Shown piece by piece: positions 4,773 through 49,664 of a DNA stretch of 64,000 nt. The notes beneath the pieces were generated by a model. The model ran no database searches. It was not told where the DNA came from and was given only the letters and a program-made list of their open reading frames with translations. Each line of letters opens with the position of its first letter. The stretch's first letter is position 1. Origin of the DNA: a bacterium (lineage in GTDB: Bacteria > Patescibacteriota > Microgenomatia > UBA8517); contig CP129472.1 of the NCBI GenBank assembly GCA_030583725.1, positions 529,902 to 593,901 of the forward strand, read 5' to 3'. The position numbers were made by a program, and so were the translations under genes.

Positions 4773-5481
4773 TTACTTTATTACCCAAACCTAACTCTGT
4801 CTTGATTGGAGCAATCACTTCCTTAGATATATATGACATATTTTTGTATAACATTTGTTTTTCTAGTTCTGCGCCATTTCGTACATCAAATGAGTGTTCA
4901 ATTAAACGCACATATTCATCACTTAGATTCAAACTGCGCGACAATCTTACAATTTCGTCGTAACTAACAACAAACTTTTGTAGTTTCAAAGCAATCAATA
5001 CGGAGGTGCCATATAAAACAGATTTGACAAAACCTGCCTTTGCACTAACAATATCACCCTCTCGATCTGATAACATTGCTGTATAAGCACGTGAGATTTG
5101 AAAAGTGGCTTCCTCAAACAAGTCTATCATCCTAATCTTTGGTGGGGTTAACGTTTCTACAACCGTGTTTCCATATAGAGTTATGGCTTTAGTAACCAAA
5201 CTTCTCATATAGGTATTATTTGGAAATGGAGTGTCTATGTCACCATTAATAAACTGGTCATGATCAAACGGATAAATCCTAAGATTGTCGACACCGTTCA
5301 TTTTTTCCAAATCAGATCTGCTTACTTTTTTGTTTTCCTTGTAAAGCACGCCAACTTCATAGTCACTACCTTCTATAAAATCTGCTCGTGCTCTAGACCC
5401 ATATAAAAAAATTGAGGTCGGGGATGTGGTAACGTAGATATTGTTTAGTGCTTTCTGAATATTTTTAGGAAGGTCAACCAT
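4765..5481 (-). CDS. nucleotidyltransferase-fold domain protein
   Basis: 238 aa. 'LYGSRARADFIEGSDYEVGVL' NTase motif (GS ... D-x-E/D). Second NTase-fold protein in the first 6 kb. Confidence 0.4.
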   Translation of the reverse strand: MVDLPKNIQKALNNIYVTTSPTSIFLYGSRARADFIEGSDYEVGVLYKENKKVSRSDLEKMNGVDNLRIYPFDHDQFINGDIDTPFPNNTYMRSLVTKAITLYGNTVVETLTPPKIRMIDLFEEATFQISRAYTAMLSDREGDIVSAKAGFVKSVLYGTSVLIALKLQKFVVSYDEIVRLSRSLNLSDEYVRLIEHSFDVRNGAELEKQMLYKNMSYISKEVIAPIKTELGLGNKVII

Positions 5482-5516
5482 TCGTAAAATTATACTACGA
5501 ATGATAAAATACTCAA

Positions 5517-6596
5517 ATGAAAATCATTCCGGAAAACAATGGCGCGATTAATATTGCTGTACAAGCATTGCAAAAAGGACAACTTGTCTTTATGGCAACT
5601 GAAACTGTATATATTGCAGCAGTGGATGCAACAAACCCTGAAGCTGTAAAAAAGCTTGTAAATTTTAAAAATAGGCCATTTGGAAAACCATTTTCAGTTG
5701 GTGTTACTGATATAAAAATGGCTGAAAAGTATGTTTTACTCAACCAAACTGCTAGGGGTTTATATAAAAAATTTCTCCCTGGACCTGTTACTGTTATTTC
5801 AACAGGGAAACATTTAGTTGCAGACGGGGTCGAGGCAGAAAACGGCACGCTAGGAATTAGAATACCTGATTATGATTTTTTTCAAAAAGTGTGCAGTGAA
5901 CTAAAAAAACCAATTACAGCAACATCAGCGAATGCAAGTTATCAAAGAAGACCATATAAACTTTCAGACATTTTAGATAACATCTCAGAAAAACAAAAAG
6001 GGTTAATTGATTTAATGGTTGATGCAGGAGAACTTCCACGCAATGAACCATCAACGGTAATTGATACCACACTCGATGATAAACCAGTCATCCTAAGACA
6101 AGGAGAAATAAAACTGAAAGACAAAAATGAAGTTCTTTCAAGGAGTGAGGAAAACACGCAAAACATAGCCAAAGAACTTTGGCAAAAATATGAAAACTAC
6201 CACAACAAAAGGGCAATTATTTTTGCCTTAACGGGTAAAATGGGGGCAGGTAAAACCCAGTTTGTCAAAGGTCTAGCTCGTGCTATGGATATAAGAGATA
6301 AAATTACATCACCAACTTATGATCTACTAAATCACTATACTCCAAAAACCAATACCCAGGCTCTTTATCATATAGATACCTGGAGAATGACCGAGCCAGA
6401 CAGCGAACTTAAAGAGCTTGGAATTAATAAATTATTACTAAATAATACTGTTATTGCTATAGAGTGGGCAGACAGAGTGATTCAAGAAATTAAAAGTTAC
6501 TCAGAAGACGCAATTATAGTCTGGGTCAAAATAGAATATCCCTCAACTGAGCAATCAAACGAGAATAACCGTCTAATTAGCTGGGGAAATATATAA
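5517..6596 (+). CDS. tsaC: fused L-threonylcarbamoyladenylate synthase (TsaC/YrdC domain) and TsaE ATPase
   Basis: 359 aa. N-terminal YrdC/TsaC motifs (ATETVYIAAVDA, K-x-R-P, SANASY, STVID). C-terminal TsaE motifs (LTGKMGAGKTQFVKG, SPTYDL, LYHIDTWR). Confidence 0.65.
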   Translation: MKIIPENNGAINIAVQALQKGQLVFMATETVYIAAVDATNPEAVKKLVNFKNRPFGKPFSVGVTDIKMAEKYVLLNQTARGLYKKFLPGPVTVISTGKHLVADGVEAENGTLGIRIPDYDFFQKVCSELKKPITATSANASYQRRPYKLSDILDNISEKQKGLIDLMVDAGELPRNEPSTVIDTTLDDKPVILRQGEIKLKDKNEVLSRSEENTQNIAKELWQKYENYHNKRAIIFALTGKMGAGKTQFVKGLARAMDIRDKITSPTYDLLNHYTPKTNTQALYHIDTWRMTEPDSELKELGINKLLLNNTVIAIEWADRVIQEIKSYSEDAIIVWVKIEYPSTEQSNENNRLISWGNI

Positions 6597-6608
6597 TATA
6601 CAAGAATT

Positions 6609-7673
6609 ATGCGTATTTTATCTATCGATACGAGTTGTGATGAGACTGCTGTGGCTGTTACGGCCAATTTGCAGGTCGTTTCGAATATCGTTTGGAGCCA
6701 ATCAAGCCTTCATTCTAGCTTCGGAGGTGTTTTTCCTAGCCTCGCACAAAGACAACATCAAGAGCGTATTGATTGGGTAATTTCAAAGGCATTGGCCAAA
6801 GCTAATTGCAGACTCTCATCTGTTGACTGTATCGCAGTTACTGTAGGTAAAGGATTAGCCATAGCGTTATCTGTTGGGGTTAATAAAGCAAAAGAACTAG
6901 CCAGAGAACACAATAAGCCACTAGTACCTATAAGCCACATCGAGGCACACCTACTCTCTCCATTTGCAAGACCAAACTCGAAAGTTACTAGTAATGTGTC
7001 AGCAATCTTCCCAGCTTTTGGTCTGGTACTCTCTGGAGGAACCACGATACTTTGTTTAATCAAAAACATTGGAGAATACGAGATACTAGCAGAAACCTCA
7101 GACGACGCCTTGGGAGAAGCCTTAGATAAAGGAGCAAGGCTACTAGGACTGGGGTACCCGGGAGGGGCAATTTTAGAAAAATTTGCACGTTTAGGTACTC
7201 CTGACAAAAATAAATTACCACTACCACTACAAAATGATAAAACTAAAGATAGATTTAGTTATTCAGGACTAAAAACTGCTTTTTTAAGACTTGTAGAATC
7301 GGTTAAAAATCCAAGCAAACAAGACATATATGATCTTTCAGCCTCTTTCCAATCAACGGCCTTTGACCACATAGAAAAGGTGCTAGAATATCAAATTCGA
7401 AATTCGAAGATTAAAGTACAAAATCTACTTTTTGGGGGAGGTGTGGCAAACAACATAGAAATTAAAAAAAGACTTAGAAAACTATGCAAAAAACATAAAA
7501 TTAAACTTCTTGTTCCATACAACAAAAAACTAAATGGTGATAATGCAGGGATGGTTGGAGTTTGTGCATATCTCAAAAATAAAGGTCTAAATACTAAGAA
7601 GTTAATTACTAAATACGGAGGATTGGAAAATATAAACTCAGTAGACATAAACCCAAGACTAAAGATCGAATAG
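6609..7673 (+). CDS. tsaD: tRNA N6-adenosine threonylcarbamoyltransferase TsaD (Kae1/YgjD family)
   Basis: 354 aa. 'MRILSIDTSCDETAVAV' N-terminus and 'ISHIEAHLLS' metal-binding HxxxH. Length fits TsaD rather than TsaB. Confidence 0.7.
   Translation: MRILSIDTSCDETAVAVTANLQVVSNIVWSQSSLHSSFGGVFPSLAQRQHQERIDWVISKALAKANCRLSSVDCIAVTVGKGLAIALSVGVNKAKELAREHNKPLVPISHIEAHLLSPFARPNSKVTSNVSAIFPAFGLVLSGGTTILCLIKNIGEYEILAETSDDALGEALDKGARLLGLGYPGGAILEKFARLGTPDKNKLPLPLQNDKTKDRFSYSGLKTAFLRLVESVKNPSKQDIYDLSASFQSTAFDHIEKVLEYQIRNSKIKVQNLLFGGGVANNIEIKKRLRKLCKKHKIKLLVPYNKKLNGDNAGMVGVCAYLKNKGLNTKKLITKYGGLENINSVDINPRLKIE
7641..7663. repeat. 23-bp direct repeat copy A (gtagacataaacccaagactaaa), inside the 3' end of tsaD
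   Basis: Identical 23-mer recurs at 8121-8143. The two copies bracket the sigma-region-4 mini-gene. Confidence 0.85.
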
Positions 7674-7674
7674 A

Positions 7675-8013
7675 CTACCACCTGTTTATTTTTTTCAGTC
7701 TATCTAGTGCTTGTACATTAATTTGTCGAACTCTCTCGGTGGTAAGACCAAACCTCTGTCCGATTTCTTCATATGTTAATCCGACAAAATATACCAACTT
7801 AACAATTTCTCTTTGCCTTGGTCTCAGTTTATTAAGACTGCTTTCTACTACTGAACGAGATTCAACCTCAGTTTCAACAACAGTTGGACTTGGGAATTTA
7901 TCTTCGTTAAAAACTTCCCAATTAAGATCTTCTTTCTTTAAATATTCTTCTTTCTTTTTGGTTCTACATAGAACCGAAGAAACCGCATGTCCAATCTTTC
8001 GACCTAGTTCCAT
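7675..8013 (-). CDS. sigma-70 region 4 (HTH) only protein
   Basis: 112 aa. 'LRPRQREIVKLVYFVGLTYEEIGQRFGLTTERVRQINVQALDRLKK' is a canonical sigma-70 region 4.2 HTH. No region 2 is present. Confidence 0.5.
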   Translation of the reverse strand: MELGRKIGHAVSSVLCRTKKKEEYLKKEDLNWEVFNEDKFPSPTVVETEVESRSVVESSLNKLRPRQREIVKLVYFVGLTYEEIGQRFGLTTERVRQINVQALDRLKKINRW

Positions 8014-8120
8014 TTACGTATTTTAATTCAATTTAAATAAAATTTCCAATTTATGATAAGTAGAGCTTTCCACTTCGTGATAAAAATAGTGATTTAATAG
8101 AATACTTTGATTACAATGTC

Positions 8121-8143
8121 GTAGACATAAACCCAAGACTAAA
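8121..8143. repeat. 23-bp direct repeat copy B
   Basis: Perfect copy of 7641-7663, lying 480 bp downstream. Confidence 0.85.
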
Positions 8144-8160
8144 TCTGAATAAATAAGGGG

Positions 8161-8382
8161 TTAACCTCGCTCTAGATTTCTTTTAATTGGACAACCTGTA
8201 AAATTACATTCATTTTTACAAAAATTTGAATAGTCAACTGAACGACATTCGAGATTTTCACCACCCTTATTAATAACAATGCTTACTAATTTCCCAGTTT
8301 TAAGACTTACATTTTGATCACCTGGGCGGGGGTCCATCCACCTCATTGTCCAATGTATACTTTCTAACTTTGGCTCTGTCAT
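8161..8382 (-). CDS. hypothetical small Cys-containing protein
   Basis: 73-aa ORF in the gap between the sigma mini-gene and valS. No recognisable motif. Confidence 0.2.
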   Translation of the reverse strand: MTEPKLESIHWTMRWMDPRPGDQNVSLKTGKLVSIVINKGGENLECRSVDYSNFCKNECNFTGCPIKRNLERG

Positions 8383-8439
8383 GGGCCGATATTACTCTCT
8401 TCGTCTGCAAAATGCAAATTTTTAAGTTAAAATACATTT

Positions 8440-10500
8440 ATGGACAGTAAATATAACCACAATGAGCATGAAGAAAAAATATATTCTGAATGGGAAAAAT
8501 CAGATAGTTTTAAACCAAATGGTTCTAAACAGACTTTTTCAATAACCCTTCCCCCACCAAATGCTAATGCTGCTCTCCATTATGGCCATGCTATGTATAC
8601 AGTTGAAGATGTATTAATTAGATACCATAGAATGAAAGGTTTTTCTACTCTTTGGATACCTGGAGCAGACCACGCTGGTTTTGAAACACAAGTTGTATAT
8701 GAAAAACATTTAGAAAAAATAGGCAAGTCGAGGTTTGATTTTGACAGAGATACTTTATATAAAGATATTTTTGAATTTGTTCAAGGTAATCGTGGGACAA
8801 TGGAAAACCAACTAAAAAGATTAGGTTTTTCACTTGACTGGTCTAATATAAAATTTACTCTTGATGATTCTGTGGTTAAGGTAGTACACAAAACTTTCAA
8901 GAAATTATACGATGATGAACTGGTCTATAGAGACATAAAACTTGTCAACTATTGCACAAAACACGGAACCGCCTTTTCAGACCTTGAAGTGGAACATATA
9001 GAAAAGATGTCTAAACTTTATTTTGTTAAATATAAAATAGAGAATGAGAATGATTACATAACAGTCGCCACCACAAGACCTGAAACAATATTTGGGGATA
9101 GTGGAATTTGTGTTAATCCTAAGGATAAAAGATATAAAAAATTTGTAGGTAAGAAGGCCATAAATCCACTCAATGGGAGAGTTATGCCTATTTTTGCTGA
9201 TGAGTACGTCAAGATGGACTTTGGTACAGGGGCCCTGAAAGTTACACCGCTACATGATGAAAATGATTTTCTTTTGGGTAAAAAACATAACTTAGAAAAT
9301 TATCAGGTTATTGATTTTAGGGGTAAGTTTACAAAAGAAGCAGGTGAATTTGAAGGTCAAAAAGCATCTACCCTTCGTGACACAATTGTTGAGAAACTAC
9401 AAAACAATGAGCACTTGGAAAAGGTAGAAGAATTTAACAACTCAGTTGGTACTTGTTATAAATGTGGTAACACCCTTGAACCTCTACCAATGGAGCAGTG
9501 GTTTATTAAAACAAAAGAACTTGCCAAACCTGCAATCAAAGCAGTCGAAGATGGTCATACTAAAATCATTCCAAAAAGATTTGAGAAAATTTACTTCAAC
9601 TGGTTGAAAAATATTAGAGACTGGAATATTTCAAGACAAATTGTTTGGGGTATTAGAATCCCTGCTTGGAAAAACACAAAAACGGGAGAATGGACGGTTA
9701 CCGATGGACAATCACCCAAAGGAGATTTTTGGGAACAGGACAAGGACACCTTTGATACTTGGTTTTCATCAGGTCAGTGGCCATTTGCAACACTCAACTA
9801 CCCTGAAGGTGAATTATACAAAAAATATTATCCCCTTTCGGTTATGGAAACTGGTTATGATATTTTATTTTTTTGGGTAGCCAGAATGATGATGTTGGGT
9901 ATTTATGTAACTGGCAAAGTTCCTTTTAAAAACATCTATCTTCATGGAATAGTTAGAGATTCAAAAGGTCAAAAAATGAGCAAGAGCAAAGGAAATGTTA
10001 TTAATCCGTTGGAAATTGTAGAAAAATATGGAGCAGACTCCCTAAGAATGTCATTAATCGCTGGTGCTGGTGCTGGCAATGACCAAAACTATTCTGAAGA
10101 AAAAGTTAGAGGGTATAGAAACTTTGGCAATAAAATTTGGAATGCGGCGAGATTTGTTAAAGATTTTAAACTAGAAGCCGACCAGAATAAAAAGTTTGAC
10201 TTAAAAATTAAAAGTATTGCCGAAAGTGTAACTAAAAGTTTAGAAAAATATAACCTAAACAAGGCCGCTGAAACAGTCTATGAAGAATTTTGGCATTGGT
10301 ACTGTGACGAAGCCATAGAAGAAGCAAAAGCTGGAAAAATTGGGTATAAACAATTAAAGTCAGGTTTATTTGTATTTTTGAAACTCCTCCATCCTTTTAT
10401 GCCGTTTGTAACAGAAGCTTGTTGGAAGGAATTGGGAAATGACACTTTACTACTAACCGAGTCTTGGCCTAAGATTAGTAATGGTCAAGATAAGGTATAG
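8440..10500 (+). CDS. valS: valyl-tRNA synthetase (short form lacking C-terminal coiled coil)
   Basis: 686 aa. Class I HIGH-type motif 'LHYGHA', 'KMSKSKGNVINP' KMSKS motif, 'DTFDTWFSSGQWPFATLNYP' ValRS-type editing/anticodon-region signature. Confidence 0.7.
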   Translation: MDSKYNHNEHEEKIYSEWEKSDSFKPNGSKQTFSITLPPPNANAALHYGHAMYTVEDVLIRYHRMKGFSTLWIPGADHAGFETQVVYEKHLEKIGKSRFDFDRDTLYKDIFEFVQGNRGTMENQLKRLGFSLDWSNIKFTLDDSVVKVVHKTFKKLYDDELVYRDIKLVNYCTKHGTAFSDLEVEHIEKMSKLYFVKYKIENENDYITVATTRPETIFGDSGICVNPKDKRYKKFVGKKAINPLNGRVMPIFADEYVKMDFGTGALKVTPLHDENDFLLGKKHNLENYQVIDFRGKFTKEAGEFEGQKASTLRDTIVEKLQNNEHLEKVEEFNNSVGTCYKCGNTLEPLPMEQWFIKTKELAKPAIKAVEDGHTKIIPKRFEKIYFNWLKNIRDWNISRQIVWGIRIPAWKNTKTGEWTVTDGQSPKGDFWEQDKDTFDTWFSSGQWPFATLNYPEGELYKKYYPLSVMETGYDILFFWVARMMMLGIYVTGKVPFKNIYLHGIVRDSKGQKMSKSKGNVINPLEIVEKYGADSLRMSLIAGAGAGNDQNYSEEKVRGYRNFGNKIWNAARFVKDFKLEADQNKKFDLKIKSIAESVTKSLEKYNLNKAAETVYEEFWHWYCDEAIEEAKAGKIGYKQLKSGLFVFLKLLHPFMPFVTEACWKELGNDTLLLTESWPKISNGQDKV

Positions 10501-10735: not shown

Positions 10736-11395
10736 CTACTCTTTAACTGCTTCTTTTGGAGCTTCGCCCTCAGCTGGTGTTTCACCTTCTTTTGGAGCTT
10801 CGCCCTCAGCTGGTGTTTCACCTTCCACCGGTACTGGTGCCTCTACAACTTCCTCCTTTTGAGGTGGTTCAACTTTGGCAACTATTGATTCTCCATCTGT
10901 TATCACTGTAACTTTTGAATCAAGTTTGATATCTTTTACATAGATTGCCTGATCAACTTCGGCTAAAATAGATTGATCAACAACTATATTCTCAGGTAAA
11001 TCTGTTGGTAATGCTTCTACTTCAATTTCGTCAAGTTGTTGAACAACAGTACCTAAGTTTTGTTTTTCAGCAGGAGACTCACCTATTAACTCAACTGGAA
11101 TTTTTGCCTCGATCTTTTCTTTCAAATCAACCTGTCTAAAATCAATGTGCAACATATCCCCACTTACTGGGTGGACTTGAACCTTTGAGACCAACACAGA
11201 CCTGCCACCTAAATCAATTAGCTGGGTCTCACCTGCTGTCTTGAATACTTCTCTAAACTCTTTTGCATCAACAACAATAGTCTCTGACTTTATATTTTTA
11301 CCAAAAATGTTAGCTGGTATTTTGCCAGCCTTACGAAGTGTTTTAACCTTCCTACCAACTACTTCTCTTTTTTCAGTTTTTAGTTTGATTGTCAT
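10736..11395 (-). CDS. rplY: 50S ribosomal protein L25 / general stress protein Ctc
   Basis: 219 aa. 'TIKLKTEKREVVGRKVKTLRKAGKIPANIFGK' N-terminus typical of L25/Ctc. Acidic repetitive C-terminus. Confidence 0.75.
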   Translation of the reverse strand: MTIKLKTEKREVVGRKVKTLRKAGKIPANIFGKNIKSETIVVDAKEFREVFKTAGETQLIDLGGRSVLVSKVQVHPVSGDMLHIDFRQVDLKEKIEAKIPVELIGESPAEKQNLGTVVQQLDEIEVEALPTDLPENIVVDQSILAEVDQAIYVKDIKLDSKVTVITDGESIVAKVEPPQKEEVVEAPVPVEGETPAEGEAPKEGETPAEGEAPKEAVKE

Positions 11396-48712: not shown

Positions 48713-48735
48713 TTGCTTGTCATAGTGTGATTTTG

Positions 48736-48822
48736 CGGTGGGGGCGAGATTCGAACTCGCGCGAGTATTACTACTCAGAGAATTAGCAATTCTCCGCAAT
48801 GGGCCAACTATGCGACCCCACC
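48736..48822 (-). tRNA. tRNA-Ser (anticodon GCU)
   Basis: Acceptor GGTGGGG/CCCCACC, anticodon loop TTGCTAA, long variable arm GAGTA-GTAA-TACTC, T-arm GCGAG-TTCGAAT-CTCGC. Confidence 0.8.
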
Positions 48823-48835
48823 TTAATCTGCAATT

Positions 48836-48937
48836 ATAGCATCAACGATACTGAATCTCATAGCATCAACGATGCTGAATCTCATAGCATCAACGATGCT
48901 GAATCTCATAGCATCAACGATGCTGAATCTCATAGCA
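48836..48937. repeat. about 4.3 tandem copies of a 24-bp unit (ATAGCATCAACGATGCTGAATCTC), each with an internal GCATC...GATGC palindrome
   Basis: Read directly. Copies at 48836, 48860, 48884 and 48908 plus a partial fifth. First copy has one mismatch. No intervening unique spacers. Confidence 0.85.
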
Positions 48938-48970
48938 GATACACCACGCTAATCTGATATACTAATTTAT

Positions 48971-49483: not shown

Positions 49484-49579
49484 AGTATAATATACCTACT
49501 TAGATTTTTTAGTGCCCGTAGTTCAACGGATAACAACCTTGCTTCGCAAGAACGTTGTCAGTTGACTGCTTGCACTTAT

Positions 49580-49651
49580 GTGCCCGTAGTTCAACGGATA
49601 GAATTGAAGATTGCGGATCTTTAGATACAAGTTCGATTCTTGTCGGGCACA
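49580..49651 (+). tRNA. tRNA with anticodon GCG (Arg-type) by manual fold
   Basis: Acceptor GTGCCCG/CGGGCAC, D-arm GTTC-AACGGATA-GAAT, anticodon stem GAAGA/TCTTT with loop TTGCGGA, T-arm ACAAG-TTCGATT-CTTGT, discriminator A. Confidence 0.55.
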
Positions 49652-49664
49652 CATAAGAAAGTAA

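Follow-up and report, generated by a model that had tools for sequence, protein, structure and literature searches.

How does a short piece of a housekeeping gene come to stand twice, without a single difference, on either side of a small gene? The locus that raises this question lies between tsaD and valS in a 64,000-nucleotide stretch (the window) of contig CP129472.1 from a Microgenomates bacterium (Patescibacteriota; Microgenomatia; UBA8517; GenBank assembly GCA_030583725.1, positions 529,902 to 593,901), where the 23-mer GTAGACATAAACCCAAGACTAAA occurs exactly twice on the plus strand, at 7641-7663 and 8121-8143. An earlier note on this DNA read the pair as duplicated target-like repeats around a small cassette, inserted by site-specific recombination at the 3' end of tsaD and containing only a 112-aa open reading frame (ORF) with region 4, and without region 2, of a sigma-70 factor. 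We arrive at a different reading. The second copy of the 23-mer is part of the remnant of another tsaD allele, and it is highly probable that the locus is the scar of a recombination between two tsaD-tail haplotypes at a variable gene slot.

The perfect direct repeats themselves are confirmed and are not a product of chance. No further copy was found in the window when up to three mismatches were allowed, and the number expected from 100 shuffles is zero. Identity ends sharply at 23 bp: in the 21 nt to the left of the two copies just 7 of 21 positions are identical, and the right flanks differ too. Copy 1 is preceded by a sequence ending in AACTCA at position 7640 and followed by GATCGAATAG from 7664, and copy 2 is preceded by TACAATGTC (ending in AATGTC) up to 8120 and followed by TCTGAATAAATAA from 8144. 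The DNA from tsaD through both copies is base-for-base the same in three Logan assemblies made independently from different runs, and the proteins of the locus are also found with the same structure in an NCBI metagenome-assembled genome (MAG) contig of 841,695 bp, making four independent assemblies altogether; the structure is therefore no assembly artefact. The repeat is also shorter than the k-mers that assemblers use. Chance and assembly error are thus effectively excluded, as is the transposon-type duplication considered below. The wider search for the 23-mer that the earlier note proposed added no further copy: an exact search of JGI metagenome contigs and IMG/VR (2.9 million viral contigs) gave no match, and hence no empty site or second element there. 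Looking up the exact proteins of the two small genes of the locus (the sigma-like gene, called mini-sigma below, and orf73, which follows copy 2) returned only the same structure in the three assemblies, and no variant lacking the sigma gene.

What do the two copies belong to? Copy 1 lies, as the earlier note stated, within the end of the TsaD coding sequence. The intact tsaD gene (6609-7673, plus strand; Pfam TsaD, 1e-67), whose closest homologues are 72-74% identical, has a C terminus of a 'long' type that reads ...KNKGLNTKKLITKYGGLENINS-VDINPRL-KIE-stop. Copy 1 encodes VDINPRL(K), the conserved tail motif, which is VD(R)NPRLK in relatives, and direct reading of 7664-7673 on the plus strand gives the tail end ('y') as K-I-E-stop. 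This stop codon is 1 nt from that of the convergent mini-sigma gene. Copy 2 lies in frame within a 3' remnant, or pseudo-tail, of about 30-33 codons (about 8050-8155, plus strand) that tblastn and DNA alignment assign to a second tsaD allele of a short, 'SLPLR' type. In the frame of the repeat the remnant reads (IYD)K-stop-SFPLRDKNSDLIEYFDYNV-VDINPRL-NLNK-stop, with an in-frame TAG at 8061-8063 and without a start codon. Its best match is P0084 (KQSLPLRGKNSNLKEFFDYDSVDRNPRLKI; 63% identity over 30 aa, E 1.7e-8 in tblastn), and 39 TsaD tails match in all. With the repeat excluded, the 21 codons upstream of copy 2 reach a Smith-Waterman score of 68 against TsaD tails (z about 11.6), compared with 22.9 +/- 3.9 (maximum 37) for nucleotide shuffles and a maximum of 38 for 1084 other local windows.

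The remnant also has identifiable relatives at the DNA level. It aligns with the tsaD tails of two related loci, L085 and L162, at roughly 73-87% by hand count, and the remnant, the spacer ends and the promoter block of valS are all collinear with these two loci. Among 120 homologues, L085 and L162 are the only ones with SLPLR-type tails, and in both a small Cys ORF and valS come next, in that order. The 23-mer is the common core of two different tsaD tails, one live and one a pseudo-tail. Before the motif, the intact gene is long (KNKGLNTKKLITKYGGLENINS) and the remnant short with the rare SLPLR insertion; after it, the live gene ends in KIE-stop and the downstream copy in NLNK-stop. We collected related loci by a TsaD-alignment scan of GTDB species genomes, which yielded 80, and by exact-protein look-ups of further contigs, giving 88 in total. 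None of them has a second tsaD tail, leaving that of the window as the only one among the 89 sequences searched.

These observations bear directly on how the repeats should be interpreted. The 480-bp interval does not hold only the 112-aa ORF, given that its right-hand ~70 bp (about 8050-8120) are tsaD-like coding sequence from another allele. A target-like duplication is likewise contradicted, as copy 2 belongs, in frame, to a piece of the conserved gene tsaD. A staggered cut would not yield this, and the earlier note had itself named a second copy within a conserved gene as speaking against its reading. Of the earlier proposal, the regenerated tsaD end and the insertion-like extra DNA are upheld, and the mechanism is not, in view of the tsaD homology upstream of copy 2. 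A short insert flanked by direct repeats is certainly the form that a transposon-like target-site duplication would take. Yet known target duplications are far shorter than 23 bp, terminal inverted repeats and a transposase are both missing, and the end of the insert would need to mimic tsaD, in frame, to the exact boundary of the repeat; such an event, or a repeat due to chance or assembly, is extremely improbable. With the 23-mer once in a live gene and once in a leftover tail, we therefore read the locus as a recombination scar and not as a transposition footprint.

If two tails met here, where could they have come from? Comparison of the related loci shows that Woesebacteria-like genomes (Microgenomates, Candidate Phyla Radiation (CPR)) have a variable gene slot in the gap that separates tsaD from valS. 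The slot is framed by conserved genes. Upstream of tsaD is a fused tsaC(Sua5)-tsaE gene (359-aa ORF, 5517-6596, plus strand; Pfam Sua5_yciO_yrdC 4e-44 and TsaE 6e-29), and both the fusion and its position are kept in most related Microgenomates loci; on the other side is valS (8440-10500, plus strand; Pfam tRNA-synt_1 3e-121), 72-74% identical to valS of L163, L165 and L014. The order tsaC/E fusion-tsaD-valS is kept throughout the closest Woesebacteria-like loci and lost in more distant ones. The gap is empty (11-34 bp) in many loci and a mere 13-22 bp in the close relatives L014, L005, L006 and L163, in agreement with the earlier claim of extra DNA at this point of the window. In L085, L162, L008, L023 and L165 it measures 235-430 bp and carries a small Cys-rich minus-strand ORF; in other loci it spans 400-1300 bp, and the ORFs there are unrelated and lie for the most part on the minus strand. 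No homologue of mini-sigma or orf73 was found in the 80 species loci. Hotspots of bacterial gene gain and loss lie between conserved core genes, and the slot resembles them in that tsaD and valS are conserved flanks around lineage-specific small genes. It differs in being very small (0-1.3 kb), in that its occupants are mostly on the opposite strand and in that one scar is preserved.

In the window, the part of the slot next to valS resembles the Cys-ORF type. The small orf73 gene (8161-8382, minus strand), called as a gene in the Logan contigs, encodes four cysteines (C-x8-C-x3-C-x4-C) and is the positional counterpart of the Cys-rich ORFs in L085, L162, L008, L023 and L165. It has no match in Pfam, NCBIfam or PHROG. 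BLASTP against the other Cys ORFs finds nothing, and Smith-Waterman alignment gives z of about 2 at most (L162, L008), a weak similarity that points to the Cys ORFs of short-tail genomes. Sequence comparison further identifies a conserved block upstream of valS (8384-8439; GATATTACTCT...TCTGCAAAATGCAAA...TAAAAT, 6 nt, ATG) that the window shares with L085, L162, L023, L008 and L093. Judging from its motifs, this block may be a compact bidirectional promoter, serving valS on the plus strand and the minus-strand passenger through TTGCAT-17-TAATAT-6-ATG. The SLPLR tail occurs together with a Cys ORF and the same valS promoter block in L085 and L162, as it does in the window.

The part of the slot next to the intact tsaD holds mini-sigma (7675-8013, minus strand), which consists of a conserved N-terminal helix (GHxVSxxL...EExxW), a linker and sigma-70 region 4. 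Its 112 aa are the maximal ORF at this position, and an extension is impossible. The earlier description of it as a region-4-only protein is correct: Pfam returns Sigma70_r4 (PF04545, 9e-19), r4_2 and a weak match to the C-terminal part of extracytoplasmic function (ECF) sigma factors, with no match to region 2, region 3 or GerE at E<=0.1, which also answers the question of its classification by hidden Markov models (HMMs). NCBIfam matches are confined to the final third of sigma models and stay under the family-specific cut-offs, PHROG gives partial matches to the region-4 end of sigma-factor families, and a profile search of the PDB finds sigmaA region 4 at 1e-14 to 1e-16. In an AlphaFold model, residues 60-110 have a predicted local distance difference test (pLDDT) score of about 90 and the N-terminal helix is of low confidence; the model superposes on Thermus sigmaA region 4 at about 1.3 Å over 75 residues. 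The primary sigma factor of the genome (52896-53975) is just 37% identical to mini-sigma in region 4, and the mini-gene is therefore no recent copy of it. A 95-aa ORF antisense to mini-sigma (7739-8026, plus strand) is not called in public contigs and is probably spurious.

A HMMER scan of 1.84 billion representative proteins shows that mini-sigma belongs to a rare family, with about seven to eight clusters found. The few full-length relatives of 110-125 aa are P0123 (41% identical), P0128, P0139, P0147, P0161 and P0270, which together with P0001 make up the family members listed here. All share an N-terminal motif (...H.VS.AL....R/K-rich...EE.(G)W) followed by region 4, and in the family alignment (A3) residues E28, W32, T80, E93, R96 and I98 are invariant. 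The recognition-helix residues of region 4.2 (TTERVRQI) are kept; we take these to correspond to E585, R586, R588 and Q589 of E. coli region 4.2. A profile search recovered the same few clusters only, and a search with a two-member alignment returned only ordinary ECF or primary sigma factors. As a separate observation, P0122, P0124, P0126, P0127 and P0129 are built from a sigma region-4-like helix-turn-helix (HTH) repeated in tandem five to nine times; P0122, with 482 aa, has 8 matched stretches, an unusual architecture unrelated to the tsaD-valS locus.

The genomic positions of the family members are informative. The two closest homologues, in L093 (41%) and L086 (35%), occupy this slot too, where they lie ahead of valS and converge with tsaD, on Woesebacteria-like contigs whose TsaD proteins are 67% (L093) and 54% (L086) identical to that of the window; neither locus has the repeat or the remnant. 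The same tsaD-valS slot was seen for three of the six members whose contigs were read, and other members are convergent with a thermonuclease gene or stand beside a two-component operon. No phage or recombinase neighbourhood was seen around family members, and no region-2-only partner gene was seen beside mini-sigma in any of these three kinds of context. The picture of a roaming cassette is hard to reconcile with this distribution, in which the closest homologues sit in the same slot of other lineages, without repeats.

The same data speak to a second possibility, namely that the locus is what is left of a larger integrative element, originally carrying an integrase, which used the 23-mer as attL/attR core, supplied a substitute gene end and lost its interior by deletions that left mini-sigma. 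Integrative elements such as e14 and phage 21 in the icd gene of E. coli insert at a gene's 3' end and supply a substitute end, and the layout of the window, with its direct repeats flanking the insert and a substitute end (KIE-stop for the displaced NLNK-stop), fits well. As with e14 and phage 21, the gene stays intact through new last codons, the former 3' end remains as a pseudo-fragment on the far side and an identical block marks the junctions. Small HTH regulators are also common cargo, and the PHROG sigma families match in part. On the other hand, the insert is smaller than 0.5 kb and has neither an integrase nor element genes, and the insert and its flanks are free of integrase, phage and plasmid genes: mini-sigma is the only gene called between the repeats, and the called neighbours are tsaCE, tsaD, orf73 and valS. 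The 23-mer has no dyad symmetry and no stable hairpin (its two copies, folded as either strand, have z-scores between +1.6 and -0.6), it is absent from the viral and metagenome contigs searched, and the homologues of the supposed cargo are resident in normal chromosomal surroundings, among them this very slot in repeat-free loci of other lineages. Finally, the leftover includes, ahead of the core, about 20 tsaD-like codons of another allele, which would not be expected from a simple att crossover. Taken together, we consider a degraded element very unlikely, and insertion of a cassette by site-specific recombination finds no integrase, transposase, terminal inverted repeats or hairpin site to rest on. 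Inverted repeats were not found at the insert ends; neither a terminator scan nor RNA folding of the two repeat regions, in either strand, gave anything above shuffles, and Rfam scans of 7400-8700 (E<=1) and of eight related loci (gathering threshold) gave nothing relevant. Integron arrays offer a looser parallel, with single-gene modules stacked in one orientation and the same short sequence after each on its coding strand. Unlike them, the window lacks attC-type hairpins and IntI, each module apparently has its own promoter and the 'site' is housekeeping coding sequence.

Which route, then, could have placed two tails in one locus? An important clue is the degree of identity between the two 23-mers. 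In 32 relatives the best pairwise agreement of the block is 21/23, none of the 496 pairs reaches 22, and both copies in the window have a rare Ile codon, ATA, where relatives have Arg; the two 23-mers therefore have a single origin. Together with the different-allele flanks and the linkage of the SLPLR tail to a Cys ORF, this makes the window look like two slot haplotypes joined head to tail: one with long tail, 23-mer, KIE-stop and mini-sigma, the other with SLPLR tail, 23-mer, NLNK-stop, Cys ORF, promoter and valS. The locus would thus comprise two modules in tandem, the first made up of KIE-stop, mini-sigma and its promoter, the second of NLNK-stop, orf73 and the valS-side promoter block, with the pseudo-tail separating them. 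Both parental slot types occur naturally, mini-sigma in L093 and L086 and the SLPLR tail with Cys ORF in L085 and L162.

As to direction of transfer, route and the part played by the 23-mer, we infer the following. DNA from a related cell with an alternative slot haplotype may have recombined into the locus, with homology in tsaD or valS fixing one end and an illegitimate junction at about 8050 making the other. The 23-mer, the most conserved block of the tsaD tail (VDxNPRLK), could serve as a homology joint for the exchange of slot modules and tails, and we propose that the two copies are identical because of this. The route sketched here corresponds to homology-facilitated illegitimate recombination (HFIR), which has been described for naturally transformable bacteria (PMC3240628); merodiploid formation by transformation has also been reported (PMC3784515). 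In HFIR, linear foreign DNA is taken up by way of a homologous anchor and one illegitimate junction, and a truncated duplicate of the anchor gene may remain, as in the window. The route would need linear DNA only, and fits both the different-allele flanks and the SLPLR linkage. By contrast, the perfect 23-bp block is not predicted by HFIR, and competence of this organism is an assumption. Of the routes considered we favour this one-sided combination of homologous and illegitimate recombination, tentatively and at somewhat less than even odds.

The perfect block is explained more directly by a single crossover within the 23-mer (Campbell-type) with a small circle containing a short-type tail, the 23-mer, KIE-stop, mini-sigma and about 40 bp upstream. 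In that event the resident long-type tsaD would gain KIE-stop, and a hybrid tail, with a foreign part, the 23-mer and the native NLNK-stop, would be left beside a native orf73. Such a crossover accounts for a perfect repeat with abrupt loss of identity on both sides, the insert is a circular permutation of a short-tail tsaD convergent with mini-sigma as in L093 and L086, and a recipient is plausible, with L165 having a long-tail tsaD, a Cys ORF and valS. About 23 bp is the minimal length for RecA-type exchange, which can be counted in favour of this route as well. The difficulties are in the starting material: a 480-bp circular double-stranded intermediate is needed, for which there is no known way to form, and the 23-mer of the donor must have been identical beforehand, a degree of agreement that no pair among the relatives attains. 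The resemblances on the right-hand side also run the wrong way. The SLPLR remnant is naturally linked to the haplotype with Cys ORF and valS promoter (L085, L162) and not to sigma, a linkage that becomes coincidence under this scheme; orf73 is weakly similar to the Cys ORFs of short-tail genomes and not to that of L165, and the valS promoter block matches short-tail genomes and not L165. We regard the Campbell-type crossover as a real but distinctly lesser possibility. A further candidate, a crossover in the promoter blocks as the site of duplication, was rejected: the region upstream of mini-sigma and the valS block are not direct repeats and share only inverted similarity.

Several points weigh against a scar of two haplotypes formed by HFIR, and should be kept in mind. 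A one-sided event does not use the 23-mer, and its 23/23 identity would need either a habitual joint or later homogenisation; no remnant was found in the other loci, so that the habitual joint is so far one case plus a patchy distribution. The search found neither haplotype singly in a conspecific genome, and the nearest relatives reach only about 72-76% identity in TsaD. A long-tail tsaD followed by mini-sigma occurs only in the genome of the window, with L093 and L086 both short-tailed. Which tail is native is not decidable from TsaD body identity, which fails to separate the tail types: long- and short-tail relatives are interleaved at 72-76%, nor is the choice narrowed by identities to L163, L165, L014 and L085 taken gene by gene. 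Lastly, any function of mini-sigma discussed here is a deduction.

What might mini-sigma do? Lacking region 2, it is predicted to be unable to direct initiation alone, and is therefore no initiation factor by itself. Most likely it would work as a small regulator, binding to -35-like DNA and/or competing for the beta-flap of RNA polymerase, and the role of a decoy or a standalone regulator suggested in the earlier note is plausible. GerE/LuxR-type HTH proteins and the SigO-RsoA pair of Bacillus subtilis are examples of standalone region-4-like HTH regulators and split sigma factors. As in the sigma-70 family, the C-terminal 60-75 residues of mini-sigma are a bona fide region 4 with the DNA-reading residues of region 4.2 kept; unlike members of that family, it has no regions 1.2 to 3 and instead a family-specific N-terminal helix (GHxVSxALY...EExGW), and unlike GerE-type proteins it is not matched by the GerE HMM. 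Our search of the literature on region-4-only sigma proteins and CPR sigma factors found no precedent.

Expression of mini-sigma may start from a promoter-like region identified by a consensus scan at 8014-8049 on the minus strand (TTGGAA at 8049-8044, 18 nt, TAAAAT at 8025-8020, 6 nt, ATG), a prediction with leaderless-type geometry that scores no better than shuffles. The start region of mini-sigma (TTGAATTAAAATACGTAAATGGA, minus strand) resembles that of valS (TTAAGTTAAAATACATTTATGGA), with an inverted similarity of 78% between 8009-8031 and 8422-8444. In both, TAAAAT lies 6 nt before the ATG, which suggests leaderless transcripts. Upstream of valS in other loci we noted T-box-like sequences, AAGGTGGTACCACGG at about 120-260 of L086 (minus-strand view) and GAGGTGGTAACTACC at about 3270-3330 of L165; Rfam at the gathering threshold does not report a T-box in L086, and valS of the window has no such leader.

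Some further observations concern the slot in other genomes and the rest of the window. In L166-L170 (GCA_003531655.1, GCA_001791935.1), a widespread Woesebacteria species with the same TsaD on >24 contigs, the slot (5015-5839) holds three ORFs of 82 aa (minus), 70 aa (plus) and 76 aa (minus), i.e. multiple occupants without a tsaD-tail remnant. The neighbours beyond valS in the window are a gene for ribosomal protein L25 and a DUF4012-like gene, recognised by similarity to L085; the L25 gene (10736-11395, minus strand) contains a perfect 36-bp tandem duplication at 10750-10821, in the part encoding its low-complexity C-terminal tail. Elsewhere, a perfect 21-nt repeat is present at 49512-49532 and 49580-49600. 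The downstream copy covers the acceptor and D arm at the 5' end of tRNA-Arg(gcg) (49580-49652); the other, 68 nt upstream and followed by unrelated sequence, could be what a different rearrangement left of a tRNA 5' part. Directly beside tRNA-Ser(gct) (48735-48822), a 24-nt unit, ATAGCATCAACGATGCTGAATCTC, is repeated in four to five tandem copies (48812-48955).

Taken further, the locus invites a more general, and quite unlikely, idea: the tsaD-valS slot could be a natural 'landing pad', in which the 23-bp tail block and the valS promoter would act as homology arms and small regulatory genes would be swapped or stacked among lineages without a dedicated recombinase. The region-4-only protein would then be an undescribed modulator of RNA polymerase, acting either as a free sigma-4 on -35 elements or the beta-flap, or as one half of a split sigma factor with its region-2 partner elsewhere. 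At a more modest level, the locus is a clean, dated-looking case of gene-content change in ultra-small CPR genomes, which have few mobile elements; the conserved tail of a housekeeping gene appears to act as a joint, and the pseudo-tail records the merger of two haplotypes. It also carries a warning for annotation, since the 112-aa gene is labelled a 'sigma-70 family RNA polymerase sigma factor', which, going by its domain content, it cannot be. None of this overturns current understanding: the locus is a modest case of genes stacked through recombination in a CPR genome, and the rare region-4-only family that it contains provides candidate minimal regulators in organisms with very few transcription factors.

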